Shown here one piece after another: positions 17,471 through 33,312 of a stretch of DNA of 64,000 bases. Each line of letters begins with the position of its first letter. Positions within the stretch are counted from its first letter, which is position 1. The stretch spans positions 832,001 to 896,000 of the forward strand of contig CAVPBK010000006.1 of the NCBI GenBank assembly GCA_963701855.1, written 5' to 3'. The notes under the pieces are model-generated. The model was not told the DNA's origin and ran no database searches. It was given only the letters and a program-made list of their open reading frames with translations. This DNA is from Nitrospirota bacterium. GTDB taxonomy: Bacteria > Nitrospirota > Nitrospiria > Nitrospirales > Nitrospiraceae. Both the position numbers and the translations under genes were made by a program.

Positions 17471-20400
17471 ATGGCACAAATCACTGGCTCATCCACGATC
17501 GATTGGTCAGGTATATTGCTTGGACAAGTTAATATTGAGACCGATATCGCCAAGTTCGCCACTCGAGTCGATCAGATAGTTACTGAGTTGGTTAACTTCC
17601 AGGTTACCCCTGTCTTCGTAAGTTCGACAACATTTGTCGGAGACCTTTCTACGGGGGGAAGGCTGACGCTCACGGGTTCAGGGTTCGGCGATGTACTCAA
17701 CTCGTTCGACTTTAAGAATCCCCCGGATGGCACCGGTGAGGTGATCCGGTTCACCGGCACCCTCGATGGCATCGGCAAGGATGTGCTGACCTCCGCCACC
17801 ATCGGATCCACGGGCTTCTCAGAAACAATCAAGGGCAACATCACTATTTCTCCGAACTGGCCGTTTGACTCCGCAAACTATACGGGCACGTTGACCTCGT
17901 TGGTCGTGAAGATTGGCGGTGCCACGGAAATCCTCAGCGGCAACTTCCACCTGACAGGCGACCTCCTCAGCGCGAGCCTGACAGGCACGGTAGCGGGGAT
18001 CTTGGTCGGTTCAGGCGCTAATACAATCAAGATGACGGGCCTGTCGATGTCGCTCGATGTGCTCCAAGCCGCGCTCGGGTCCCCTGAACTGGATTCAGTC
18101 GATGATCTCTTCGCCTTTCTGAATAACCACCTTCCTGGCAACGACACGATTACCTATGCCAACAACTCGAGCGTCGGGATGACGTTTTACGGCGGTGGCG
18201 GCAACGACACGATGACCATTAGCGGACCCAACGCAGATACGCTGAATGGTGGCGTGGGCAACGACACACTGAATGGAGGTGCGGGCAACGATACGCTGCT
18301 GGGTGGGGACGGCAACGATGTTTTCCTGATCAGGTCTGCCACGGATCATGGGGTGGGAGAGGTCATCGACGGGGGTGCGGGCAGCGACGTCATCCGTTTC
18401 ACCAGCACCAACGGGGGTCAGATCCTGACGCTAGCTACGGGCGTCACGACGGTTGAGAGCGTGGTGATCAGCACCGCAGCGGGTGTCACCACCGGCACCA
18501 CTGCGCTCAACGTGGACGCCTCCGCCGTGGGCAACGGCCTGTCACTCACCGGCAACGCAGGTGCGAACAGACTCACCGGTACCAGCACTAACGATACCAT
18601 GAACGGGGGGGCGGGCAACGACACGCTGATCGGCGGTGCGGGGGAGGATACAGTCACCGGCGGCACCGGGAATGACCGCATCGTTATGCTGGTCACCGGG
18701 GGCAATGTGGACGTTGCGGACGGAGTCGCGGGCAACGACACGCTGGCGCTCGTCGGCGCGATCGATGGGGACGGCGTGGTGGTGGTTGATTTGTCCTCGC
18801 TGACCGACCAGGTAACCCACATCGGCACGGTCGATCCTGAGAAGCTGGTCCAAAAGAATTTCGAGAATCTGGATGCCTCGGGGCTTGGCAGTTCAGTGCA
18901 CGCGACCGGCAGTGCCGACGCCAATATCATCATCGGTTCGGACGATACCGACAGCATCAATGGCGGCGCTGGCAACGACACGCTGAATGGGGGCGCAGGC
19001 GACGATACGTTGCTGGGCGGGGACGGCAACGATGTGTTCTTGATCGGGAATGCCGCGGACCATGGCGGGGGCGAGGTGATTGATGGGGGTACGGGCGCTG
19101 ACGTAATCCGCTTCACCAGCATCACCGATGGTGACGGGTTGGTCCTCAGAGCACAGATCACAGGGGTGGAGAGCGTGGTGATTGGCAATGCTGCGGGGCT
19201 GACCACCGACACGACCAGGCTCGACGTGAATGCGATCAGTGTGGGCTACGGCCTGTCTCTCACCGGCAACGCAGGCGATAACCAGCTTGTCGGGACTGAT
19301 TTCAATGACGTGCTCAATGGCGGTGGCGGCGACGACAGCCTCAACGGGGGCTTGGGCACCAATACGCTTATTGGAGGTACTGGGAACGACCTTCTGGACG
19401 GGTCGGGAGGCACAAACACACTGATCGGGGGCGCGGGGAACGACCAATATGTTATCGACTCCTCCACCGACGTGGTCATTGAAGCGCTGAATGCCGGCAC
19501 CGACTTGGTCATCAGTTTTATAGAGACGTGCACCCTTGGGCTCAATGTGGAAAACCTGATTCTGGTTGGCAACAATACTCAAAACGGCACCGGTAATGCG
19601 CTGAATAACATCATTTATGGCAACGTCAGCAGCAACCAGCTCTCCGGGCTCGCGGGCAATGACACGCTGACCGGCGACTGGGGGGAAGACATCGTCGACG
19701 GAGGGGCTGGCAACGACCGCATCGTCATGCTGGTGACTGCTGGGGATGTGGATACTGCGGACGGGGGCACGGGCACCGACACGCTGGTACTCGGCGGCGC
19801 GGTCGGGGGCAACGGCATCGTGGTCGTCAATTTGGTGGCGGGTGCAGGCGACCAGGTCACGTTCAGTGATGATACCCTGGTGCAGAACAATTTCGAGAAT
19901 CTGGATGCCTCGTATCTGTCCCTTGGTGGATCAGTGACTGTCACGGGCAGTGCCGGCGCCAATAGCCTCATCGGCTCAAGAGGCACCGACACCATCAACG
20001 GCGGCGGCGGCAACGACACGCTGGATGGGGGCGCGGGCGACGATACGCTGAATGGGGGGAACGGCAACGATGTCATCTTGATCGGGAATGCTGCTGATCA
20101 TGGCGGGGGCGAGGTAATCAACGGGGGGACAGGCACGGACGTGATCCGCTTCACCAGCACCACCGATGGTGAGGGGTTGGTCCTCAGAGCACAGGTCACG
20201 GGGGTGGAGAGCGTGGTGATCGCGAATGCGGCGGGGCTCACGACCGGCACGACCGCACTCAACGTGGATGCGTCTGCACTCAGTAGCGGGCTCTCCCTCA
20301 CCGGCAACGCGGGCGACAACGTGCTGACCGGCACCGGCGGGAACAACATCCTGAACGGGGGCGCGGGCAACGATACCTTAAATGGTGGAGGCGGCATCAA

Positions 20401-23400
20401 TACGCTGATCGGTGGCACCGGGAACGATCGGTATATTGTGAACTCCCTGACCGACGTGGTGAGCGAAGCGCTGAACGCGGGCACCGACACCGTGGTGGCC
20501 TCCCTCACCACCTACACCCTCACTGCGAATGTAGACAATCTGGAGCTGGCGGGGGCGGCGCTCATCGGCATCGGCAACACGCTCAACAACATCATAACCG
20601 GCAATGACGGCGACAATACGCTCTCCGGGCTCGCGGGCAACGACATCCTCATCGGCGGCGCGGGGCAGGACACGATCAACGGGGGTGTGGGCAACGACCG
20701 CATCGTCATGCTGGTGACCGCTGGGAATGTGGACATCGCGGACGGGGGCGCGGGCATCGATACGCTGGCGCTCGTCGGTGCGGTCGACGGGGACGGCGTG
20801 GTGGTGGATTTCTCCTCGGTGACGGACCAGGTGACCCGTATCGGCGCGGTCGAGCATGAGTCGCTGGTGCAGAAGAACTTTGAGAACCTGGATGCGTCGG
20901 GACTAGGACTGGGCAATACAGTAACTGTCACCGGCAGTGCCGGCGCCAACCTCCTCATCGGCTCGAATGGCGCCGACAGTATCAATGGTGGCGTTGGCAA
21001 CGACATCCTCACCGGCGGGGCCGGCAGCGATATGCTGAATGGCGGAGATGGCAACGATATTGTTATCTGGGATTCAGCTGACACCAGCGTGAGAGGAGGC
21101 GCAGGCACCGATACGCTGCGGATCGACGGCGCAGGTGTGCACGTTAACTTGACGGTAGTTCCGGACGGGGTCATCACGGACATCGAGGTGATCAACCTCA
21201 CCGGCAGCGGCAACAACATTCTCACGCTCGCTTCTGCCGATGTGCTGGCGATTTCTACCACGACCGACACCTTGCGGGTGGACGGCAACAGCGGGGACGT
21301 AGTGAGCGCAGTGCCGGGCTGGGTACGAACCCAAAACATTGTCATCGGCGCACAGACTTATGCCCAGTACACCAACGACGGTGCGCTGCTCCAGGTGGAT
21401 ACCGATATCAACAGTTCCGGAATCGGTGCGATCAGTCTATCGTCGCTTACTGGCGCCAATGGTTTCAAGCTCTTAGGCGCAGGTGCAGGTGACCATTCCG
21501 GCATTTCGGTGAGTTGCGCAGGCGATGTGAACGGCGACGGGTTTGCCGATCTGATCGTCGGGGCATCGGACGCAGCTCCGCACGGCCTCTCTTCCGGGGC
21601 AAGCTACGTGGTGTTTGGCAAAGCAAGCGGCTTTGCCGCGAATATCAATCTCTCGAGCCTCAACGGCACGGACGGTTTCATGTTGTCAGGGATAGCGGCG
21701 AACGACCAATCCGGCATTTCGGTGAGTAGCGCAGGCGATGTGAATGGCGATGGCTTTTCCGATCTGATAATCGGAGCGCCCGGCGCTACCATTGGACAGG
21801 GCGCGAGCTATGTCGTATTCGGCGAAGCGGGTGGCTTTGGCTCGACCATCGACCTGTCCTCTCTGGACGGAATCACCGGCTTCAAGTTGTCAGGGACAGC
21901 GGCGAACGAACAATCTGGCTTCTCGGTGAGCGGCGCAGGCGATGTGAATGGCGATGGATTCGACGACATTGTCATCGGATCGCCCAGCTTCAATAACGCG
22001 AGTTGGGTGGTCTTCGGCAAGGTGAGTGGCTTTCCCACAGCTATTGCCGTATCCGCTCTGAACGGGGTGGGTGGTTTTGGGCTTGGTGAAAACTTTGCGA
22101 CACAATTTGGCCACAGCGTGTCAAGCGCAGGTGACTTCAACGGCGACGGCCTTGACGATGTGATCATTGGTGCGCCCCTTGCTGACGTACCTGTCTTTTC
22201 GGGAGGCTTCCATCCCGACAACGGAGCCGGCTACTTGTGGTTCGGCAAGAGTGGCGGATTTACCATGAACAGTACGAGTCCGTTGAAAGGCACTCTGGAC
22301 AACGATCATCTCGGCTTTTCTGTCAGCGGCGTGGGCGATGTGAATGGTGACGGTTTTGACGACGTGATCCTCGGAGCCATCGGTGCCGATACCAATGGCC
22401 CCGATTCGGGAGCGAGCTACGTTGTCTTCGGTTTCCAGGGGTTAGTGACGCCCGATTTCGAACTCTCGTCACTGAATGGTACCAATGGTTTTAGGATCTT
22501 GGGTGCAGCGGGGGGTGACCAATCCGGTTTCTCAGTGAGCGGCGCTGGAGATGTGAACGGCGACGGGTTTGACGATCTGATCATTGGAGCGCCTGATGCC
22601 GACCCGCACGGCCTCTCTTCCGGGGCAATCTATGTGATATTTGGAAAGCCGGCCGGTTTTTCCGCCAATCTCGATCTTTCCACACTGTCTGACGCTGATG
22701 GATTCAAAATCTCAGGCGCAGCAGTGGGGGACAATTCCGGCTCTTCGGTGAGCAGCGCGGGGGATGTGAACGGCGACGGGTTTGACGATCTCATCGTCGG
22801 GGCACCCTCTGGCGACCCGAACGGCAGCGGTTCCGGGGCGAGCTATGTGGTATTCGGCGCGGACTTCCGCGGCGATATCAACATTGCCGGTACAGCTGGC
22901 GATGACATCCTGACAGGCACGGACGGAGCAGACATCGTATTCGGCGGGCTCGGCAATGACACATTGGACGGCGGCGCGGCCGCTGACTTTCTGAACGGCA
23001 ACGCGGGCGATGACATCTTGATATTTGATGGCCTGGATCGGCGCATTGACGGCGGCAGCGGGACAGACACTTTGTTGTTCAACGGCTCAGGACAAACACT
23101 CGATCTGACCAGTCTCGCTAACAGCAAGATTAACGGTATTGAAACAATCAACCTGACCGGCAGCGGTGATAACGCGTTGATCCTCACCGGCCAGGACTTG
23201 CACGATCTGTCGGACACCAGTAACGCGCTGCGTGTGGATGGTAATCCTGGTGACACCGTGAACGCGGGGTTCGGGTGGGGTTTTGGCAGCAATGTCACCA
23301 TCGGAAATCAGGCCTATGTCCAGTACACCCAGGGAAACGCCGTATTGCGAGTTGACAGCGATATTGCGCTTACGATTGGGAATGCTGTAATTCTCTCGGC

Positions 23401-25381
23401 TTTGAGCGGAACGGATGGTTTCAAGCTCAACGATGCTGTGCTAATCGATTCCTCTGGCCGTTCGGTGAGTGGCGCGGGCGATGTGAACGGTGACGGATTT
23501 GACGACCTTATTGTCGGGGTGAGCGTTGCGAGTCCGAATGGCGACTTGTCGGGACAGAGCTATGTAGTCTTTGGCAACGGCAGTAGCTTTGTGCCGCAAA
23601 TCAATCTCCCGAGCCTCGATGGTACCAACGGTTTTCAACTCTCCGGCGAAGCGGCTGATGACCGCTGTGGCGGCGACGTAAGCTCAGCGGGGGATATTAA
23701 CGGCGACGGCTTTGACGATCTCATCGTCGGGGCAAGTCTCGCCGATTCGAGTGGCAGCAATTCCGGGGCAAGCTACGTGGTGTTTGGCCACGCAGGCGGC
23801 TTTGCGGCGAACCTCGAGCTCTCGAGCCTCAACGGCACGAACGGTTTCAAGCTTTCCGGCGCGGCGGCGGGCGATCGCCTTGGCACAGTCAGCGAGGCGG
23901 GCGATGTCAACGGGGACGGGTTTGACGATCTTATCGTCGGGGCACCCTCTACCTCCCCGAACGGTAGCGCTTCGGGTGCAAGCTATGTGGTATTCGGCAA
24001 GAGCGGTGGCTTTGCATCGAATATCAATCTCTCGAGCCTCGATGGTACCAACGGCTTCAAGCTCTCCGGTATCGCGACGGAGGACATTTCCGGTGCTTCG
24101 GTGAGTGGCGCAGGCGATATGAACGGAGACGGATTCGGCGATATCATCATCGGCGCGCCTGGCGCGGATCTGAACAATCCCGGTCCGGGTTACTTTACCT
24201 TGAGCGGGCAGAGTTATGTGGTGTTCGGCAAAGCCGGAGGGTTTGATGCCAATGTTAACCTTTCTGACTTGAACGGCACCAACGGCTTCAAGTTGAACGG
24301 AGCAAACGGCGACGAATCCGGAAGCTCCGTGAGCGCAGCAGGGGATGTCAACGGCGACGGGTTTACCGATGTCATTATCGGCACAACCCCGGTCGGGACT
24401 AGTGTGGCGGCGAGCTACGTGGTGTTCGGCAAAGGCGCGGGCTTTGCGGAGGACATCGAACTCTCGCTCTTGGATGGTACTGACGGCTTCAAATTGATCG
24501 GTGGGAATGAACTTTCATCCCATTCGGTGAGCAGCGCTGGTGATGTGAACGGCGACGGGTTCGACGATCTCGTCGTTGGTGCATCTCGTGCCGACGCGAG
24601 CGGGATCGACTCCGGTCAGAGCTATGTGGTCTACGGCAAGAGCGGTGGGTTTGGTGCGACTCTCGTCCTGTCGCAGATAACCGAGTCAGATGGCTTTGTG
24701 ATCAACAATACGGCTTTCGGGATCGGCGATGGTTTTGAACTTAACTATTCCGGAAGTTCAGTGAGCGGCTCGGGGGACGTGAATGGTGATGGCTTTGACG
24801 ATCTCCTCGTCAGCGCGCAAGGCGCCAGCTTCGAAATGTTTGGGGGCAACTTTACCAGGTCGGTGGACTTCCTCGGTACGAGCGGCAACGATATCCTTAT
24901 CGGCAATGGTAGCGCCAACATCCTCATCGGCGGCCTGGGCAACGATACCCTTGACGGCGGCGCGGGCGATGACAGGCTAGCGGGCGGGCTCGGCAACGAC
25001 ACCTTCTTCTTCGGTCTCGGCGATGGACAAGATCTAGTGCGGGACAACAGCGGCTCTGCCGACAAGATATCGTTCGACGGGGGCATCAATCCGCTAAATC
25101 TCGTCATCAGTCGGCAAGCCAATGATCTGCGGATTGCAATTCATGGCACATCTGACCAGATCACCGTGCAGAACTGGTACACAAGTTCAGTTAACCGGAC
25201 GGAGACGATCCAAGCAGGCAATGGCGAAGTGTTGCTCAGCACGCAGGTGGATCAGCTCATTCAAGCGATGGCCCAATTCACGACAGATACCGGCCTGAGC
25301 TGGGAGGGTGCTATCGAGAGCGGTGGGACCCCACAACAACAAACGCAGTTCCAGGGCATCCTGGCCGCGAGCTGGCAGTAA
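17471..25381 (+). CDS. Giant RTX (hemolysin-type Ca-binding) protein with two 7-repeat FG-GAP/integrin-alpha-like propellers; probable T1SS-secreted adhesin
   Basis: Many GGxGxDxLx nonapeptides; 2x7 GD(V)NGDGFDD repeats; C-terminal ITVQNWY...VDQLIQAMAQF RTX tail; no signal peptide. Confidence 0.92.
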   Translation: MAQITGSSTIDWSGILLGQVNIETDIAKFATRVDQIVTELVNFQVTPVFVSSTTFVGDLSTGGRLTLTGSGFGDVLNSFDFKNPPDGTGEVIRFTGTLDGIGKDVLTSATIGSTGFSETIKGNITISPNWPFDSANYTGTLTSLVVKIGGATEILSGNFHLTGDLLSASLTGTVAGILVGSGANTIKMTGLSMSLDVLQAALGSPELDSVDDLFAFLNNHLPGNDTITYANNSSVGMTFYGGGGNDTMTISGPNADTLNGGVGNDTLNGGAGNDTLLGGDGNDVFLIRSATDHGVGEVIDGGAGSDVIRFTSTNGGQILTLATGVTTVESVVISTAAGVTTGTTALNVDASAVGNGLSLTGNAGANRLTGTSTNDTMNGGAGNDTLIGGAGEDTVTGGTGNDRIVMLVTGGNVDVADGVAGNDTLALVGAIDGDGVVVVDLSSLTDQVTHIGTVDPEKLVQKNFENLDASGLGSSVHATGSADANIIIGSDDTDSINGGAGNDTLNGGAGDDTLLGGDGNDVFLIGNAADHGGGEVIDGGTGADVIRFTSITDGDGLVLRAQITGVESVVIGNAAGLTTDTTRLDVNAISVGYGLSLTGNAGDNQLVGTDFNDVLNGGGGDDSLNGGLGTNTLIGGTGNDLLDGSGGTNTLIGGAGNDQYVIDSSTDVVIEALNAGTDLVISFIETCTLGLNVENLILVGNNTQNGTGNALNNIIYGNVSSNQLSGLAGNDTLTGDWGEDIVDGGAGNDRIVMLVTAGDVDTADGGTGTDTLVLGGAVGGNGIVVVNLVAGAGDQVTFSDDTLVQNNFENLDASYLSLGGSVTVTGSAGANSLIGSRGTDTINGGGGNDTLDGGAGDDTLNGGNGNDVILIGNAADHGGGEVINGGTGTDVIRFTSTTDGEGLVLRAQVTGVESVVIANAAGLTTGTTALNVDASALSSGLSLTGNAGDNVLTGTGGNNILNGGAGNDTLNGGGGINTLIGGTGNDRYIVNSLTDVVSEALNAGTDTVVASLTTYTLTANVDNLELAGAALIGIGNTLNNIITGNDGDNTLSGLAGNDILIGGAGQDTINGGVGNDRIVMLVTAGNVDIADGGAGIDTLALVGAVDGDGVVVDFSSVTDQVTRIGAVEHESLVQKNFENLDASGLGLGNTVTVTGSAGANLLIGSNGADSINGGVGNDILTGGAGSDMLNGGDGNDIVIWDSADTSVRGGAGTDTLRIDGAGVHVNLTVVPDGVITDIEVINLTGSGNNILTLASADVLAISTTTDTLRVDGNSGDVVSAVPGWVRTQNIVIGAQTYAQYTNDGALLQVDTDINSSGIGAISLSSLTGANGFKLLGAGAGDHSGISVSCAGDVNGDGFADLIVGASDAAPHGLSSGASYVVFGKASGFAANINLSSLNGTDGFMLSGIAANDQSGISVSSAGDVNGDGFSDLIIGAPGATIGQGASYVVFGEAGGFGSTIDLSSLDGITGFKLSGTAANEQSGFSVSGAGDVNGDGFDDIVIGSPSFNNASWVVFGKVSGFPTAIAVSALNGVGGFGLGENFATQFGHSVSSAGDFNGDGLDDVIIGAPLADVPVFSGGFHPDNGAGYLWFGKSGGFTMNSTSPLKGTLDNDHLGFSVSGVGDVNGDGFDDVILGAIGADTNGPDSGASYVVFGFQGLVTPDFELSSLNGTNGFRILGAAGGDQSGFSVSGAGDVNGDGFDDLIIGAPDADPHGLSSGAIYVIFGKPAGFSANLDLSTLSDADGFKISGAAVGDNSGSSVSSAGDVNGDGFDDLIVGAPSGDPNGSGSGASYVVFGADFRGDINIAGTAGDDILTGTDGADIVFGGLGNDTLDGGAAADFLNGNAGDDILIFDGLDRRIDGGSGTDTLLFNGSGQTLDLTSLANSKINGIETINLTGSGDNALILTGQDLHDLSDTSNALRVDGNPGDTVNAGFGWGFGSNVTIGNQAYVQYTQGNAVLRVDSDIALTIGNAVILSALSGTDGFKLNDAVLIDSSGRSVSGAGDVNGDGFDDLIVGVSVASPNGDLSGQSYVVFGNGSSFVPQINLPSLDGTNGFQLSGEAADDRCGGDVSSAGDINGDGFDDLIVGASLADSSGSNSGASYVVFGHAGGFAANLELSSLNGTNGFKLSGAAAGDRLGTVSEAGDVNGDGFDDLIVGAPSTSPNGSASGASYVVFGKSGGFASNINLSSLDGTNGFKLSGIATEDISGASVSGAGDMNGDGFGDIIIGAPGADLNNPGPGYFTLSGQSYVVFGKAGGFDANVNLSDLNGTNGFKLNGANGDESGSSVSAAGDVNGDGFTDVIIGTTPVGTSVAASYVVFGKGAGFAEDIELSLLDGTDGFKLIGGNELSSHSVSSAGDVNGDGFDDLVVGASRADASGIDSGQSYVVYGKSGGFGATLVLSQITESDGFVINNTAFGIGDGFELNYSGSSVSGSGDVNGDGFDDLLVSAQGASFEMFGGNFTRSVDFLGTSGNDILIGNGSANILIGGLGNDTLDGGAGDDRLAGGLGNDTFFFGLGDGQDLVRDNSGSADKISFDGGINPLNLVISRQANDLRIAIHGTSDQITVQNWYTSSVNRTETIQAGNGEVLLSTQVDQLIQAMAQFTTDTGLSWEGAIESGGTPQQQTQFQGILAASWQ

Positions 25382-25480: not shown

Positions 25481-26512
25481 TTATCGGATCGTCATCGTCT
25501 GCTGGACGGAACCTTGAAGAGCCTGTTCCTGACTCTCTCGCACCAGCGTGATCTCGCCCCGATAGGTACCTGGAGTCCACAGATCGGCGTTCCGACGTGC
25601 TCCCGCAAAGGCGAAATGCCGGGCCTGGGTCTTGGCGATGGCCGTCACGTGATCCAGCACCACGACCCCATCCGGTCCCGTGAGGTGGAAGCGCAGACGA
25701 TCACCCGCTTCCACGCCTAGGATATCCACCCAGAGCACCAAGGCCGCTGACGTCGCGCTGGGGGGCGGATCTTCGATCTTCCCCGCGCGAATGGCGTCGA
25801 TCTGTGGAGAGCTTCCGGCGACACCCGCATGATAGAGGGCGAAGGGTTCATACGAAACAGGCTGATCTGTGTGCCACATCGACGTGCCGCCGCGTCCGCA
25901 TCCGGCGATGCTGGATTGGCCCGTGAACGGATCGATCACCTGGCCCTGATGCCGCACCGTCACATGTACGTGGGGGAACTCGGTCTGGCCTGAAAGCCCG
26001 ACCAGCCCCAGCTCCTGACCGTGTGCCACACGCTCGCCTCTCTTCACACGCACCGTCCCACGGCGCACATGGCAATACTGCGTCTGCCAGCCCTGCTCAT
26101 GATCGAGCACCACGCCATTCCCGCATTCTCGGCCGGCAATCCGCTCGCGTGACAGCGCATCGGTCAGGGCCACATCAGCCATGCCGTCCCGTACGCTCCG
26201 GACCACACCCGGCGCACTAGCCCGCACAGGCACCCCTGCCGCCATCACCGACAGATCCCGAATGGCAAAGTCCGTCCCATCGTGTCCCTGATAGGTCCGA
26301 GCATGGCAACGGAAATCGTGCGCGGTTGTCGCGGGATCGACATCCACATAGTTCGCCACCCAGCAGGTCTCGCCCAGTCGGCACTCAAGCGGCAGCCCAA
26401 GTTCGAAAGGATCAAGAGACGGAAGACGGTGAGCGAGATCCGTGGCGCTCGCGAGCGAGACCACAAGCACAGACAGGATCACAAGCATGAGGCGCAAAAG
26501 GGGAAGAGCCAT
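25481..26512 (-). CDS. M23-family metallopeptidase, secreted
   Basis: Signal peptide, HDGTD, CGNGVVLDH..GWQTQYCH, FPHVH. Confidence 0.9.
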   Translation of the reverse strand: MALPLLRLMLVILSVLVVSLASATDLAHRLPSLDPFELGLPLECRLGETCWVANYVDVDPATTAHDFRCHARTYQGHDGTDFAIRDLSVMAAGVPVRASAPGVVRSVRDGMADVALTDALSRERIAGRECGNGVVLDHEQGWQTQYCHVRRGTVRVKRGERVAHGQELGLVGLSGQTEFPHVHVTVRHQGQVIDPFTGQSSIAGCGRGGTSMWHTDQPVSYEPFALYHAGVAGSSPQIDAIRAGKIEDPPPSATSAALVLWVDILGVEAGDRLRFHLTGPDGVVVLDHVTAIAKTQARHFAFAGARRNADLWTPGTYRGEITLVRESQEQALQGSVQQTMTIR

Positions 26513-26764: not shown

Positions 26765-27035
26765 TCACGCAGCTATGATGCGTTGAACGGTGCAATTGCC
26801 TATGCCCAGTTTTCGCGCTATCGCTCGCATACCTCGACCTTGCTTCCGTAAGGCCACCACCTGAGCCTCCACAGCAGCACTTACGCGAGGCCTCCCCAAG
26901 ATCTTGCTCTCTGCCCTGGCGTGCTTCAGACCAACCTTGACGCGCTCCACAATCATGCTGCGCTCAAACTCTGCGAAGACCCCCGGCATTTGAAAGAGCA
27001 ACTTTCCCGCTGGGGTAGTGGTGTCGATGCCCCTT
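26765..27035 (-). pseudogene. C-terminal half of a serine resolvase/invertase
   Basis: GIDTTTPAGKLLFQM.GVFAEFERSMIVERV...GRPR plus HTH; the catalytic N-terminus is absent. Confidence 0.82.
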
Positions 27036-27039
27036 TGTA

Positions 27040-27270
27040 GCCTCTCCGAAGCCAGGAGCATGAGCAGTATCAGGAGCAGTAAAGCAGAAGCAGAAAAAGG
27101 AGAAGGGCCTGTGTCTCCGACGGTCGATGACGGGTTTGAGAAATTTTTGCGATGCTACCCTCGGAGGGACAAAAAACAGGAGGCATGGAAGGCCTGGAAC
27201 CAGCTCTATCCAAACGAGCTACTCGTCCAGACGATTCTTGAGGCCATCGAACGCCAGAATCTCCAACACG
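27040..27270 (+). pseudogene. Fragment of a phage/plasmid replication-protein-like gene
   Basis: FEKFLRCYPRRDKKQEAWKAWNQL resembles the F..FW..YP.K..K..A..AW motif of phage replisome organisers. Confidence 0.5.
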
Positions 27271-27711: not shown

Positions 27712-27741
27712 TGGTGGTCCCAACGGGATTTGAACCCGTGT
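27712..27741 (-). repeat. att site: 30-bp duplicate of the tRNA-Glu 3' end
   Basis: TGGTGGTCCCAACGGGATTTGAACCCGTGT identical to 33235-33264. Confidence 0.95.
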
Positions 27742-27861
27742 CTTAACACGACTACGACTTCGCCCTTATTCTTCAGAGGCTTCGAACATTTTATTCAAGT
27801 CAGAAAGGGGTACGACTAAAACAAGAGAGTGTCAGGTCGCATCAAAGATCCCCACGTTGCC

Positions 27862-27945
27862 GCCTAACGTCGTGCGGTGCGGCCGGCCGCAACGGTTGAG
27901 ATGGTGCAACGCTGGCGGCCGGTCCGCACCAGCTACAGGTTAGGT
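27862..27945 (-). other. Integron attC site (cassette 3), 84 bp
   Basis: Minus strand ACCTAAC...GTTAGGC with internal palindrome GTGCGG-CCGGCCGC...GCGGCCGG-CCGCAC. Confidence 0.88.
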
Positions 27946-27950
27946 GCACG

Positions 27951-28451
27951 TCAGTGAAATTGCTGAACAAGCCACCACCCTGCGTGACAGTAGAAGTATG
28001 CGCCGGCCCCATCGTATTCACTTCGAAGAATTGGGCCACTGGTAAAGCTGCTCGCCGGGCCACGTTCGCGAACATTGTCGCGGTAGAAGAACTCACTTAG
28101 CTTCATTCGCTCATCGCGGATAACGGTTAGTCCTCCGGGGTAGTTTTGCCATGAGATTGTGCCCGGGCACTTGTTTGACTGTCCTACGATCACCAGAAGG
28201 TACTTCTCGGGTGCCTTTGGCCTCGTACACCAGAATACAGCACTCTCGTCTCGAGCGCCGGGTAGATAGTCAAGCACGTAAGGCGGGTCAAGCAAACCTG
28301 GACGTTTGAAGAAATCCGTGATTTCGCTGCACCCATGTGTGGTCGCAGCCTCGATCAGCGGTTCCGGTAAGGTCTGCCCATGCGCCACGGTAGCTCCACT
28401 GATCATCGCCAAACTAAGGAGGCCAGCGAGAAAACGTGGGCGCCAAGTCAT
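27951..28451 (-). CDS. Cassette 3 gene: secreted hypothetical protein
   Basis: Signal peptide ending AHG; ATG 13 nt after the GTT crossover; stop abuts attC. Confidence 0.8.
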   Translation of the reverse strand: MTWRPRFLAGLLSLAMISGATVAHGQTLPEPLIEAATTHGCSEITDFFKRPGLLDPPYVLDYLPGARDESAVFWCTRPKAPEKYLLVIVGQSNKCPGTISWQNYPGGLTVIRDERMKLSEFFYRDNVRERGPASSFTSGPILRSEYDGAGAYFYCHAGWWLVQQFH

Positions 28452-28457
28452 ACGTGC

Positions 28458-28527
28458 ACCTAACGTTTGAAATTACCGGCGCTGCGCGGCTTTATCGCGC
28501 AGCGTCCGGTGGAATGAGGGGTTGGCC
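28458..28527 (-). other. Integron attC site (cassette 2), 70 bp
   Basis: Minus strand GGCCAAC...GTTAGGT with palindrome CCGG-CGCTGCGCG...CGCGCAGCG-CCGG. Confidence 0.92.
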
Positions 28528-28547
28528 CTCGCGGCGTACGTAATAGC

Positions 28548-29072
28548 TCACTTCGTGACTTTCAGCCGGGCCACGATAGAAAGTGCTCGCCCAGACACTT
28601 TGTCTTTTACGTTCGCGGTAATCTTGTAGTCACCAACAGGATCAGATTTATCAAAACCTACGGTCAGGCTAGCCAGGCCCAGCTGCAAATGCCGTTGCTG
28701 CATAGGCTTTCCAGACCAGACTGGGCCACCGCCCGCCGGTGTTTTGCTCCCGTCTGGGCCTTCGAGAATGAACTCGGAAACTACGTCGCAGACGCCCCCG
28801 TCATTCGGCGAGCAACCATGAAAAATGAGAAGTGCAGAGACCGACCCGCCGAGACGCACGGTATTGGCAGCACTCAGTTTCGGTGGAGTCTCGGACGAGT
28901 TCCATGTCTGGCGAAACTGACCTTCGTCCGCAGTAAGAACTATGTGAGCACCGAAGTCTCCAGCACTGCGCATGCTCTCAGTATCGGGGAGCAGTTTTCC
29001 AGTTGGATCAATCCATGCGCTCTGAGCAACAAACGGAAGAAGTGCGACGAGCAACGTCAAACACTATTTCAT
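28548..29072 (-). CDS. Cassette 2 gene: secreted hypothetical protein with an in-frame TAG at codon 3 (possible pseudogene)
   Basis: GGAG RBS, then ATG AAA TAG TGT TTG...; the ORF track starts at TTG 29060. Confidence 0.7.
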
Positions 29073-29093
29073 AAGAGAAACTCCAATAGTGAG

Positions 29094-29159
29094 GGCCAAC
29101 GTAAAGTTGAGGGGCGAAGCCACGCAGTGGCGAAGTCCCTCTCGAACGACAGGTTAGAC
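29094..29159 (-). other. Integron attC site (cassette 1), 66 bp
   Basis: Minus strand GTCTAACCTGTCGTTCGAGAGGGAC...GCCCCTCAACTTTACGTTGGCC, a canonical R''-L''-L'-R' layout. Confidence 0.93.
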
Positions 29160-29166
29160 TTATAAC

Positions 29167-29493
29167 TCATAACTCATAACTGATACTAACCTGTTTATTA
29201 GTGATTGTGCTCGATACTACCCCTTGCGATGTAACGTAGAGTTTTTCGCTTTCTAGCTTGCGGCCATCTGCGAACGTTGCCACGATCCAAAGCTGTTTAT
29301 CTCCACCCGAAATATTGAGGCGAACGGATTTATTAGTTGGAATAGTGGCGGTATGTGATTCGCCCACATCAGTATGAGTTTCCACCGATACTGATTCAGA
29401 GCTGGTATTAGCGATTACCGCAACAGGTGACGAGCAAGCACACAGACAGAACGAAAGAGCGATAGCGAGTATGTGAGCAAGAATTCGTTTCAT
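29167..29493 (-). CDS. Cassette 1 gene: hypothetical lipoprotein
   Basis: MKRILAHILAIALSFCLCAC lipobox; AT-richer than its neighbours; ATG 9 nt after GTTAGCC. Confidence 0.82.
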   Translation of the reverse strand: MKRILAHILAIALSFCLCACSSPVAVIANTSSESVSVETHTDVGESHTATIPTNKSVRLNISGGDKQLWIVATFADGRKLESEKLYVTSQGVVSSTITNKQVSISYEL

Positions 29494-29495
29494 AT

Positions 29496-29665
29496 GGCTA
29501 ACTATGTATTATCTGGTTCTGCATAAGATCCCCGTCGTCGTGCGACGCTGGATAAGACCCGTACGATATTCGGGCAGAATCAGAGCATAAGTCCAAGATC
29601 GTTCTCAGGGATTTGTCTTTGCCTCCTTTGCCCATGGGGTCTTATGCGGTTCCGTATAAGACCCT
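29496..29665 (-). other. Putative attI site with upstream direct repeats and a palindrome
   Basis: Non-palindromic ATAATACATAG/TTAGCC core at the head of the array; four ATAAG(A/T)..CC motifs at 29523, 29552, 29587 and 29656; hairpin GGGTCTTATGCGG-TT-CCGTATAAGACCC. Confidence 0.6.
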
Positions 29666-29808
29666 CTGACTTCGAAAGCGTCAGGGGGAGGGAATGGGTG
29701 GGGGTCTGTGTTAACTCTAGAACAGAGCCCTGCCTCGAACGCCTACTTGATATAAGCCACTGCCGAACAGAGATGGCTACGCTGTACAGAGGGAAATCCC
29801 CCGCCCCG

Positions 29809-30509: not shown

Positions 30510-30594
30510 ACCTACCTGAGAGAGTGCAAGGTTCAGCCAATGGCCCACCTGTAAAGAGTTCGATTCACTCGCAGGAATCCAGCACGGCCTTTAT
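30510..30594 (-). pseudogene. N-terminal relic of a VapC/PIN toxin
   Basis: ATA-K-A-V-L-D-S-C-E-TGA-I-E-L-F-T-G-G-P-L-A overlapping the antitoxin stop; looks like M..VLDS..WIEFF with the start and Trp codons mutated. Confidence 0.6.
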
Positions 30595-30800
30595 GATCGG
30601 TCTTTCTTCTCCCGCAGATCCGTCCTGGACATCCCCTTGAGCGCTCCCTTGAGTGACTTGAGGGGAACTTCCGGCACCAGGGTGATGACACCACCTTTCT
30701 CCACGACGTGAAGATGCTGTCTCGGCCTGAGGTGCAGTTTTTCCCGCACTTCCTTGGGAATTACAATTTGGAACTTCGGTGAGATCGTCGTCGTGGCCAT
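30591..30800 (-). CDS. AbrB/MazE/SpoVT-family antitoxin
   Basis: TTISPKFQIVIPKEVREKLHLRP; AAGGAG RBS. Confidence 0.85.
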   Translation of the reverse strand: MATTTISPKFQIVIPKEVREKLHLRPRQHLHVVEKGGVITLVPEVPLKSLKGALKGMSRTDLREKKDRS

Positions 30801-31127
30801 GGCAGGACTCCTTACCAATTCGTGGGCGATCATTGTTTTGTCATATGTTGCGAGTCAAGGCAAACGATGCTCCTGCGCCGCCTCACAAAATGAACGATCC
30901 CTTACTCAAAGAGGGCTACTTGTCCTTTACTATCCCAAGCTGTCCTCAACTGCCTAATTCCATTCTCCCCCTCTTTGCTCTACGCTCATGATCATGTCGA
31001 GAGTTCAGGCCTGTTCACACGAGCGCGACGGCATGACTACCCCAGCGCACATCAGCGTACATCTGCCTAATTCCCAGGGCAGAATCTCCGACGTAGGGTG
31101 GGAGAACGTTTGAACCAAGGAGGGCCT

Positions 31128-31409
31128 ATGAAGACATCGGATTTGTCGATCAAAGAACTCGCCGCCTTCATTCGCGTGAGTACGGACACCATCCGGCGAG
31201 CGGTTCGCAACGGCGAGATTCCGTCGACAAGGGTCAGGACCGCGTTACGGTTTGATCTGCAGGAAGTCAGCACCTATATGCAGCGGAACGCAGAGGCCAG
31301 GTTTGGGGCACGCTCGACTCGCGCGCGGGGCGGCACTGCCGGCCGCGCGCAGGCTGATCAGCCCCCTGCTGGTAAAACGGGGGCGCAATTTCCAGGCAAC
31401 GGATCATGA
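31128..31409 (+). CDS. Excisionase-like HTH protein
   Basis: LSIKELAAFIRVSTDTIRRAVRNGEIPSTRVRTALRFD; AGGAGG RBS. Confidence 0.82.
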   Translation: MKTSDLSIKELAAFIRVSTDTIRRAVRNGEIPSTRVRTALRFDLQEVSTYMQRNAEARFGARSTRARGGTAGRAQADQPPAGKTGAQFPGNGS

Positions 31410-32211: not shown

Positions 32212-33153
32212 ATGACGTAACAGTTAGTAGATCTCGTAGAGCAGTTTTGTCAGTACCAACTCAAACGGCGCGGCAAAACGGAAGGAGGGGTGCAAAGCTA
32301 TCGCTGGGTGCTCGAACAGTTTCTAATTTTTGTCAGATCCCGACATGGACGGTTGGCTCGCGCCACTGACCTCACGCTATCATCGATTCAGATGTGGATG
32401 GACGACATGGCTAGCTGTGATCTTGCCCTGAGTACGATGCGTTCGCGTCAATCGACGCTGTCGAGCTTCTGTGGTTGGCTCGTGAAGCGGGGCGTGCTTC
32501 AGGCGAATCCCGTCGCGGCGATGGACCGACCACCGCACCGAATGGAACCACCGCGACAAGTGCCGACACCGGCCCTCATGGATGCATTGATCGCTGCGGC
32601 TCAGCAACGCCAGCGGCCTCGTGATATCGCCATCTTTCTGATCATGCGGTACACAGGGATGCGGCGCGAGTCGGTCGCGACGCTTCAGGTGCGACACCTC
32701 GACGGCACTTGGGGCCTTCGGCGGGTACGCGTCAAAGGCGGACAGACGCGGGACATTCCGTTGCCGGAAAGCGTGATGACGTATCTCCATACCTACGTCG
32801 AACGGCTGACTGACGCCATGGGTCAGATCGGGCTGGAGACCCCGCTATTCTGGTCTCTGTGGGGACGGCGAACTGTTGGGAAGAGTCGAGCACCGATGCA
32901 GGGGAAAAATATCTGGCGGCTCTGCAAAACCTATGGGCGGCTCATTGGGTACCCGATGCTGAAACCTCATGATTTGCGTCATGGGGTCGCGATGGAGGTG
33001 CTGGAGCAACAGCATGACTTGGAGCAGGTTCGAGCCTTGCTCGGGCATTCGCGCATCGACACGACCCAAATCTACACCATGATTCGGCCTACGCGGTTGA
33101 AGCAAGTGGTGTCGTTTTATGAAGAGCCGGCGAGACGGATGCTGACGAGTTAG
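32212..33153 (+). CDS. Tyrosine recombinase (XerC-like phage integrase) with an in-frame TAA at codon 3
   Basis: SAM-like N domain, YTGMRR, VKGG, HDLRH, LLGH..IDTTQIY. The RBS-preceded ATG 32212 is in frame with GTG 32290 but is followed by ACG TAA. Confidence 0.88.
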
Positions 33154-33234: not shown

Positions 33235-33312
33235 TGGTGGTCCCAACGGGATTTGAACCCGTGTTTAAGCCTTGAGAGGGCTCCGTCCTAGGCCAGGCTA
33301 GACGATGGGACC
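33235..33312 (-). tRNA. tRNA-Glu (CTC)
   Basis: GGTCCCA...GAGCC-CTCTCAA-GGCTT...GGTTCAAATCC...TGGGACCACCA cloverleaf with CCA. Confidence 0.97.

Follow-up and report, generated by a model that had tools for sequence, protein, structure and literature searches.

Probable remnant of a chromosomal integron in a tRNA-Glu island of a soil Nitrospira

Layout of the locus

The DNA analysed here, called the window below, is a stretch of 64,000 nucleotides from a soil Nitrospira (GenBank assembly GCA_963701855.1, contig CAVPBK010000006.1, positions 832,001–896,000). Its minus strand holds three short genes, each closed by an imperfect palindrome, behind a conserved region of about 170 bp. We read this locus, with a probability of about 0.9, as the remnant of a chromosomal integron, consisting of an attI site and an array of three gene cassettes, from which the integrase gene intI is gone. 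A preliminary description, made from the letters of the sequence, had proposed three bona fide cassettes with self-complementary ends at 27862–29502. The observation was confirmed at these positions, and its reading as integron cassettes was supported. The attI site, the probable loss of intI, the premature stop in cassette 2 and the tRNA-Glu island around the array had escaped that description. The features are listed in the order in which they are read (ORF, open reading frame; R1, the covariance model described in the next section).

29503–29670, minus strand: putative attI region, conserved over about 170 bp, its last letters (...GAACCAGATAATACATA) immediately preceding the crossover G 29502
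29496–29502, minus strand: junction heptamer GTTAGCC between attI and cassette 1, with the crossover between G 29502 and T 29501
29501–29100, minus strand: cassette 1, 402 bp; ORF 29493–29167, 108 aa
29159–29094, minus strand: attC1, 66 bp; R″ GTCTAAC, R′ GTTGGCC; R1 36.0 bits, E 1.3e-6
29099–28464, minus strand: cassette 2, 636 bp; GGAG, 8 nt, ATG 29072; ORF 29072/29060–28548
28527–28458, minus strand: attC2, 70 bp; R″ GGCCAAC, R′ GTTAGGT; R1 39.5 bits, E 1.8e-7
28463–27868, minus strand: cassette 3, 596 bp; ORF 28451–27951, 166 aa, with a signal peptide
27945–27862, minus strand: attC3, 84 bp; R″ ACCTAAC, R′ GTTAGGC; R1 17.9 bits, E 0.038
27824–27861, minus strand: array end, 38 bp from the last R′ box to the conserved island end

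The 5′ end of each cassette was complementary to the R″ arm of its own attC. For cassette 1 the match was 6/7 (five nucleotides, then one mismatch), and for cassettes 2 and 3 it was perfect from the G of GTT, over 10/10 and 13/13 nucleotides respectively; the pairings given in the preliminary description were exact for all three. Its coordinates for the palindromes and their lengths of 66–84 bp were likewise correct. It had also let each gene start soon after a GTTRRRY motif, which held in part: two of the four R′-type heptamers fit the motif strictly, and the other two, GTTAGCC and GTTGGCC, are off at position 6. The spacing from the G of GTT to the ATG was 9, 28 and 13 nt in cassettes 1, 2 and 3. 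With such short leaders, and with no sigma-70-like promoter detected on the minus strand between 27600 and 30700 by a crude consensus scan for this one promoter type, the genes are consistent with the promoterless, co-oriented cassettes that had been proposed. At the upstream side of the array, similarity to other attI loci stopped at the junction heptamer GTTAGCC. A 9-mer shared by attI and the array end, GGGGATCTT, was judged to be a chance match.

The array was also found in soil metagenomes, where contigs at least 99% alike, from four studies, covered it in pieces. One contig record spanned 28649–29624, bridging cassette 2, attC1, cassette 1 and attI, and another spanned 27904–28653. It follows that the succession of attI and cassettes 1, 2 and 3 did not arise by accident in assembling the genome from which the window comes. 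One of the soil runs that yielded these contigs may, however, be the source of that genome.

attC sites

An attC site is expected to have an R″ box (..YAAC) and an R′ box (GTT..) at the ends of an imperfect inverted repeat of about 55–140 bp. Such boxes were present at both ends of all three palindromes, of 66, 70 and 84 bp, with one consensus position off in the R″ box of attC2 and in the R′ box of attC1. An Rfam scan of the window returned three tRNAs only. Simple scanners combining a pattern with a fold were dropped for a covariance model, as they passed over attC1 and attC2 or else yielded many false positives.

This model, R1, was home-built from 14 attC sites of other Nitrospiraceae arrays, none of them from the window. 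The training set came from 52 loci of the genome contig collection (genome_contigs) that carry the 19-mer found at the attI junction. By the rule that R″ complements the cassette start and that the hairpin is symmetric, the arrays of these loci gave 44 candidate sites, of which 14 (56–72 bp) were kept and aligned (alignment A1). In A1, 81.6% of the cells pair in the canonical attC structure, versus 24–42% when the partners are slid by 1–3 columns, and 10 of the 19 pairs change on both sides. Run over the 64 kb on both strands with filters off, R1 gave three matches at E ≤ 0.04, which were exactly the three palindromes. The next row, truncated-looking, had an E-value of 9.9, and only four rows were returned at E ≤ 10. 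A covariance-model scan of this kind had been put forward in the preliminary description as a check on its reading, and it bears that reading out at all three sites.

Folding of the bottom strands gave a less uniform picture. The bottom strand of attC2 (the window + strand, folded as single-stranded DNA) was more stable than its shuffles (z −4.17, 0/200 shuffles as good) and showed one bulged T. That of attC3 reached z −5.14, again with 0/200 shuffles as good, and showed a bulged T and, close to the stem base, further small irregularities. In the alignment to R1, all three sites carried unpaired bases at both bulge positions of the model, on the L″ side. These extra bases would mark the window + strand as the recombining bottom strand, an assignment that agrees with the orientation of the genes. 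The folds and extrahelical bases expected on the bottom strand were thus present for attC2 and attC3, and the fold of attC1 was not significant (its values are given below).

Global alignment identity among the three attC sites was 56–60%. They had been called unrelated, which holds beyond the common consensus and not for the sites as a whole; the three cassettes may, as was then suggested, stem from different donors. An attC2-type site also closes unrelated cassettes in four relatives of the same genus (L022, L025, L026 and L027). In soil contigs from three runs of three studies, only the attC2 core (28475–28508) matched, with unlike flanks on both sides; these core-only matches indicate that the attC2-type stem is common to other cassettes in those communities.

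R1 matched 11 sites in the whole genome at E ≤ 1. About 75 kb before the start of the window, the same genome carries a second decayed integron (G000:C6:754530–756830). Its layout is the same: behind a co-oriented C-terminal remnant of the integrase IntI (C6:756721–756828, with one TAG) comes an attI-like stretch, other than the one described here, that ends in GTTAGCT. The R″ box of its cassette, AGCTAAC, matches the start of that cassette, and two of the 11 R1 matches lie there, at C6:754530 and C6:755524 (41.4 and 38.2 bits). Taken together, the 11 sites and this second array indicate that the genome holds several decayed arrays.

attI region and probable loss of intI

The approximately 170 bp upstream of cassette 1, which carry repeated TCTTAT(R)C motifs, were also found in other species of the genus, up to the GTT at which the similarity ended. 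Among the 52 loci with the junction 19-mer, 48 shared the upstream sequence and diverged after the junction heptamer; the remaining four, which lack the upstream similarity, belong to other phyla and look like chance matches. Ungapped identity between the window and the 48 loci was 0.53 over the 60 nt before the searched motif, versus 0.25 over the 60 nt after the junction heptamer. When the window was included, the junction started with GTT in 43/49 cases and fit GTTRRRY in 24/49.

Some of these loci are intact integrons. L036, which is one record with L090, carries an intact IntI (464.9 bits with TIGR02249, whose cut-off is 265) that reads toward attI and reaches its stop codon 183 bp short of the crossover G. 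The first cassette of this locus is closed by an attC whose R″ box is complementary to the cassette start. A tblastn search with the L036 IntI over the 48 attI loci found full-length, co-oriented IntI genes ending at −183 in three (L069, L085 and L090), a frameshifted IntI in two pieces in one (L047), and C-terminal remnants with the same end point in eight (L049, L050, L056, L063, L070, L071, L082 and L094). In the other 36, no IntI adjoined attI, with the limit that four of these hold less than 1 kb of upstream sequence. By homology to the intact integrons (L036/L090, L069 and L085), the region 29503–29670 is probably the attI site of the array.

The sequence of attI was still kept in the 36/48 Nitrospiraceae loci without an adjacent intI. 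Such conservation would make sense if orphan attI sites were used in trans or otherwise served the cassettes. What stands in place of intI varies among the relatives and includes toxin-antitoxin pairs, trpS, groEL and an anthranilate synthase gene. In the window, the position held by intI in intact relatives is occupied by an overlapping gene pair, DUF6883/DUF4926, which recurs in many relatives.

No IntI was found elsewhere in the genome (97.14% complete) over the TIGR02249 cut-off, the best piece scoring 80.8 bits versus 265. IntI genes do occur in the family: 17 of 151 sampled genomes had one over the cut-off, including one of the 17 sampled in the genus. Beside the intact IntI of one genome of the same genus (G140, locus L038), the attI motif was not found.

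Integron attI sites are not known in most cases; according to PMC4889954, they cannot usually be searched for. The region described above provides a sequence-defined attI for a Nitrospiraceae integron family. Its 19-mer allows orphan arrays to be told from insertions at secondary sites, and repeated losses of intI to be counted.

Other occurrences of attI-like sequence were seen. The 22-nt attI core has another exact copy, at G000:C6:1234083–1234104, with a different upstream sequence. The roughly 60 bp that follow its GTTAGGC are common to L075, L076, L078, L081 and L089, as a fixed sequence behind the junction in this subfamily. Directly upstream of attI, ORFs with an SNase domain lie at −950 to −270 from the crossover in L060 and L063. 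About 40 places of the genome (for example C9:327933 and C5:211001), none of them within the locus described here, carry arrays of 9–10-nt units, AACCAGATAAAC/AACAAAACAAAC, beside inverted arrays of GGTTTGTTTGGTT. They form a dispersed repeat family, the unit of which overlaps the attI core word ACCAGATAA.

Cassette genes

The ORF of cassette 1 encodes a signal peptide and contains LCAC, a lipobox-like motif; its product is, on these grounds, probably a lipoprotein. Its G+C content is 46%, versus 55.6% for the window. The protein collection held 22 homologues besides the protein itself, none of them named, and the only NCBIfam match was to a PsbQ model, over the signal peptide and at 17.9 bits (cut-off 106.9). 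Besides its own genome, 2/300 genomes of the family had matches. One of its homologues (G289, another genus, locus L103; 81% protein identity) starts with the same GTTAGCCATATG, that is, with the heptamer GTTAGCC followed by ATATG. It lies behind a short attC belonging to a different cassette, without attC1 downstream. In G187, a relative with 41% identity is followed by an attC of 48.7 bits.

Cassette 2 reads ATG AAA TAG (29072–29064), with a stop at codon 3, and the frame reopens at TTG 29060 to run to 28548. Seven homologues that were fetched start MKW or MKK, with Trp or Lys at codon 3, and share the signal peptide from there onward, where the window has M, K and a stop. Because the homologues carry an amino acid at this position, the gene appears to be cut at codon 3 and cassette 2 is probably inactivated here, unless translation restarts at TTG 29060. 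Such a restart would leave a signal peptide deprived of its first four residues, the lysine included.

The product of the uninterrupted frame is predicted to be a secreted beta-sandwich protein. This is suggested by an AlphaFold2 model (pLDDT 80.6), for which Foldseek returned generic Ig/FnIII-like beta-sandwich matches with query TM-scores below 0.5. In the protein collection, cassette 2 had 156 matches at E ≤ 0.001. Among the best 120 of these, the first was that of the window itself, and most of the other 119 were 174 aa long; records named Azonexus, Chitinivorax, Methylophilaceae, Desulfobulbaceae and Desulfuromonadales were among the matches listed. No match was found in the 300 family genomes.

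In metagenome contigs, cassette 2 is found together with its attC as one unit. In eight of 23 metagenome loci with cassette 2, an R1 match ended some 22 nt ahead of the start codon, and five of these eight also had one about 20 nt past the stop. Downstream of the homologues in L105, L106, L124 and L116, the attC is homologous to attC2 and keeps the R″ box GGCCAAC. Aligned with one another (alignment A2), these four loci are alike through the first 3–4 bases of the R′ heptamer and unlike from position 4, one base past GTT.

Cassette 3 was found in 2/300 family genomes besides its own, and nine homologues besides itself, on short contigs, were present in the protein collection. The preliminary description had proposed to look for the cassettes in other arrays: cassettes 1 and 2 do recur there, and for cassette 3 no second array was found. 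The homologue in G140 (39% identity, E 7e-40), the sole one seen in genomic context, sits between an RHS-repeat gene, which ends 10 nt ahead of it, and a second RHS fragment, where an immunity gene is usually placed. This positional lead, the layout of a toxin C-terminus with its immunity gene, suggests that cassette 3 might encode an orphan immunity protein of the periplasm. The stretch concerned (G140:C1:479–3955, locus L099) contains the end of the RHS-repeat gene, the cassette-3 homologue with its signal peptide, the second RHS fragment and a small ORF.

For the structure of the cassette 3 protein, Foldseek gave nothing at E ≤ 0.001; the best model was moderate, with a pLDDT of 74.7, the other four reaching 52–62. 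A PliI row obtained for it in the protein atlas scored 0.81, which is below the counting level, and was set aside. More generally, the protein atlas placed the cassette proteins in unnamed clusters only. Neither Pfam nor PADLOC matched any of the three, and NCBIfam gave no meaningful match. The products of the three cassettes, one of which is broken, are exported proteins of unknown function and therefore raise no concern about resistance or virulence.

The tRNA-Glu island

The array lies inside a small element at a tRNA-Glu gene, together with the following features.

33235–33312, minus strand: tRNA-Glu(CTC), the target of the island
32290–33153, plus strand: Xer-like tyrosine recombinase (PF00589, 5.2e-23)
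31098–31409, plus strand: excisionase-family helix-turn-helix gene (TIGR01764, 6.4e-11)
30591–30833, minus strand: AbrB/MazE-type antitoxin-like gene of the island backbone (profile searches)
30374–30039, minus strand: DUF6883 (Pfam, 1.1e-14)
30042–29809, minus strand: DUF4926 (Pfam, 3.1e-10)
27712–27823, minus strand: island right end, including a 30-bp exact repeat (27712–27741) of the tRNA-Glu 3′ end

The tRNA-Glu gene and the 30-bp repeat bracket 5.5 kb. The marks of a tRNA island are all there: next to a tyrosine recombinase gene stands the tRNA gene, of which the 3′ end recurs as a direct repeat. The same right end was found in five other genomes (G012, G017, G022, G010 and G004). Three of these, G012, G017 and G022, carry the same backbone and ends at tRNA-Glu with unrelated cargo, and R1 had no match on the related islands L019, L020 and L021. 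The decayed integron, of the co-oriented Nitrospiraceae type, is thus carried in a tRNA-Glu island of a soil Nitrospira.

Two further assignments were considered and rejected. Since R1 had no match between 29503 and 33235, the island genes in that stretch, among them the AbrB-like gene and the DUF6883/DUF4926 pair, are not cassettes. Nor is the island recombinase an IntI: it matched TIGR02249 with its C-terminus only, at 52 bits versus 265, and what it has in common with the L036 IntI is 39 aa around the catalytic motif.

One other genome links the island to an array. An alignment with G008:C233 covers window positions 27728–27872 at 82.8% over 145 bp; it comprises the island end and the 38 bp of the array end, and stops 4 nt into the attC. 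The terminal attC of G008 (19.6 bits) and its cassette, with an EF-hand-like ORF of 232 aa, differ from those of the window. Because G008 keeps the island end and the 38-bp array end with a different terminal attC and cassette, there is a hint that the tRNA-Glu island might serve as a vehicle that carries an integrase-less integron platform between Nitrospira genomes, with cassettes exchanged by a co-oriented IntI acting in trans. We consider this unlikely. If true, it would be a new route of integron mobility in a lineage of nitrifiers, by way of a tRNA-targeting island and not of a transposon or plasmid.

Several observations concern the surroundings. An element of about 100 bp, …CTCTTGGCTAGAC.TGGCCTGAAT…GGAGTAGGGTGGTGACAA…CCTAAACCGCTGGTC, is common to L019:6400–6510 and L104:1990–2095; it sits near the end of the island cargo in G012 and just past the array in G187. 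About 650 bp outside the island repeat, on the minus strand, an ORF of 98 aa (26765–27061) is a truncated serine recombinase: of the resolvase catalytic domain it matches only the C-terminal end (positions 100–143 of the 145 in the profile), and it has a helix-turn-helix besides. Farther away lie an ORF of 2636 aa (17471–25381, plus strand) and then an M23 peptidase gene (25481–26512, minus strand).

History of the locus and alternative explanations

We infer the following order of events, together with a past IntI activity at the locus and its present inactivity. An IntI of the co-oriented Nitrospiraceae type, whose gene reads toward attI with its stop codon 183 bp short of the crossover, would have inserted circular cassettes serially at the attI crossover G|TT. 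Each cassette would have brought a single promoterless ORF followed by its own attC hairpin. A circle opened within the R′ box would leave the first six bases of the cassette as the absent partner of its own R″ arm, and it is because each circle opens inside its R′ box that the cassette ends would be self-complementary. Recombination would have taken place on the folded bottom strand, here the window + strand, marked by the unpaired bases of the L″ side. Afterwards, intI would have been deleted to within a few bases of its stop codon, in the place where the DUF6883/DUF4926 pair now lies. Cassette 2 would meanwhile have gained its stop at codon 3. Since the genome has no IntI, the array would now be static unless an integrase is supplied in trans. 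The whole module would be the cargo of the 5.5-kb tRNA-Glu element, with its own Xer-like integrase and excisionase.

A number of results weigh against this account. At the attC sites, the fold of attC1 was not better than that of shuffled sequences (z −1.10, 27/200 shuffles as good). The match of attC3 to R1 was weak, at 17.9 bits, and was missing from the genome-wide R1 matches at E ≤ 1. The covariation figures of R1 are partly built in, as the choice of training sites already demanded R″/R′ boxes and a symmetric hairpin. Among the cassettes, no second array with cassette 3 was seen in the 300 family genomes or among the homologues of the protein collection, and its G140 homologue lies outside any cassette. 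At the attI, the tblastn search with the L036 IntI detected no remnant beside the window copy, so the loss of intI at this locus is deduced from the relatives. No cassette promoter Pc was seen in the attI region or elsewhere on the strand between 27600 and 30700, which leaves the expression of the genes unexplained. Finally, no excision or deletion joints were seen in the contigs of the four soil runs, a result of little weight either way since contigs drop rare variants.

An alternative for the history alone is that a ready-made segment, attI plus array, moved into the island cargo by homologous or illegitimate recombination after the loss of intI, without any capture at this place. It would fit with the unrelated cargo found at the same place in related islands, with the many chromosomal contexts in which the attI-plus-array module occurs elsewhere (toxin-antitoxin pairs, trpS, groEL, the anthranilate synthase gene and others), and with a window attI that has no intI remnant at its side. 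Against it speaks the comparison with G008, a single one, in which the island end and the 38-bp array end are shared and the terminal attC and cassette differ, as turnover of cassettes while attached to the island would produce. We hold this transfer to be possible though doubtful; the identity of the cassettes would be unaffected by it.

Continued activity of the array through the Xer-like tyrosine recombinase of the island, acting on attI and attC in an integron-like system without IntI, is very improbable. The recombinase gene (32290–33153, plus strand) is divergent from the cassettes, as intI is in classical integrons, lies in the same 5.5-kb element, and has the C-terminal catalytic region that Xer-type recombinases and IntI have in common. 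However, the resemblance to the IntI model is limited to that C-terminus (52 bits, cut-off 265), and the tRNA-Glu repeat pair is an obvious job for this recombinase itself. The attI family is physically tied to true IntI genes or remnants in 12/48 loci and to no such Xer-like gene, and the islands with the same recombinase in G012, G017 and G022 have other cargo and no R1 match.

It is scarcely credible that the small genes were inherited vertically and that the palindromes between them are hairpins of an ordinary intergenic kind, either terminators or a repeat family, with coincidental boxes: the unremarkable fold of attC1, the two of four heptamers that miss the strict GTTRRRY consensus and the several false positives of the pattern-plus-fold scanners elsewhere in the window would agree with it, but over the 128 kb of strand searched R1 gave no further match below E 9.9, the 10- and 13-nt end pairings sit exactly at the predicted crossover, the hairpins have no T-run and the three terminator-like sites called between 27600 and 30700 all lie inside the ORF of cassette 2 and not at the palindromes, and the cassette genes, present in two (cassette 1), none (cassette 2) and two (cassette 3) of the 300 family genomes besides their own, are rare in the family yet recur with attC sites elsewhere.

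The decay of an integron remains the reading that we prefer. It places on record, to the exact boundaries, an integron that has decayed in a soil Nitrospira, and its one attI and three dissimilar attC sites make a natural set of substrates for a co-oriented IntI of the same family.

Comparison with known systems

Class 1 integrons are mobile and are carried on Tn402-type transposons. The window array resembles them in being short, in having dissimilar attC sites and in being carried as cargo by another mobile element, one that has a recombinase of its own. It differs in having neither intI nor resistance genes, and its vehicle is a predicted small integrative island at tRNA-Glu in place of a transposon or plasmid. 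Sedentary chromosomal integrons of the Vibrio type hold tens to hundreds of cassettes, among them toxin-antitoxin cassettes, and have homogeneous attC sites. With these the window shares a chromosomal location, cassettes of unknown function and, beside the array, small two-gene modules of addiction-like type. In contrast, its DUF6883/DUF4926 pair, located upstream of attI, lacks an attC, the cassettes number three, and the attC sites are not homogeneous.

An intI transcribed toward attI is a known, atypical layout, described in Treponema (PMC3607928) and for the ‘inverted IntIs’ (PMC8352920), which form a clade within the soil/freshwater clade (PMC8352920). The intI genes of L036/L090, L069 and L085, which lie on the cassette strand, resemble in layout the inverted type of Treponema denticola. 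The window copy differs from that clade in being without intI.

The closest match is the CALIN, a cluster in which two or more attC sites share a strand within 4 kb and no intI is close by (Cury et al. 2016, PMC4889954). The window, with three attC sites in 1.3 kb of the minus strand and no intI, falls within this definition, and in IntegronFinder terms the locus is a CALIN. Of the parts of a complete integron, intI is absent and attI appears to be present, by homology. Two CALIN were reported by IntegronFinder 2.0 in Candidatus Nitrospira inopinata (PMC9024848). The likeness to the CALIN of PMC4889954 and PMC9024848 extends to several traits: a small array, of about five attC sites on average (PMC4889954) versus three here; location, in half of the cases, in a genome without IntI, as in the present one; and loss of the integrase as one proposed origin. 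Pseudogenes of intI were near only 15 of 279 CALIN (PMC4889954); none is present at the window locus, and one is present at the second array of the same genome. What distinguishes the window is an attI identifiable by homology to intact relatives, which makes it arguable that the array originated as a decayed integron and not by insertion at a secondary site. The locus is a gene-capture relic of this known kind. New are the defined attI, the tally of intI loss in Nitrospiraceae, the broken cassette 2 and the island context.

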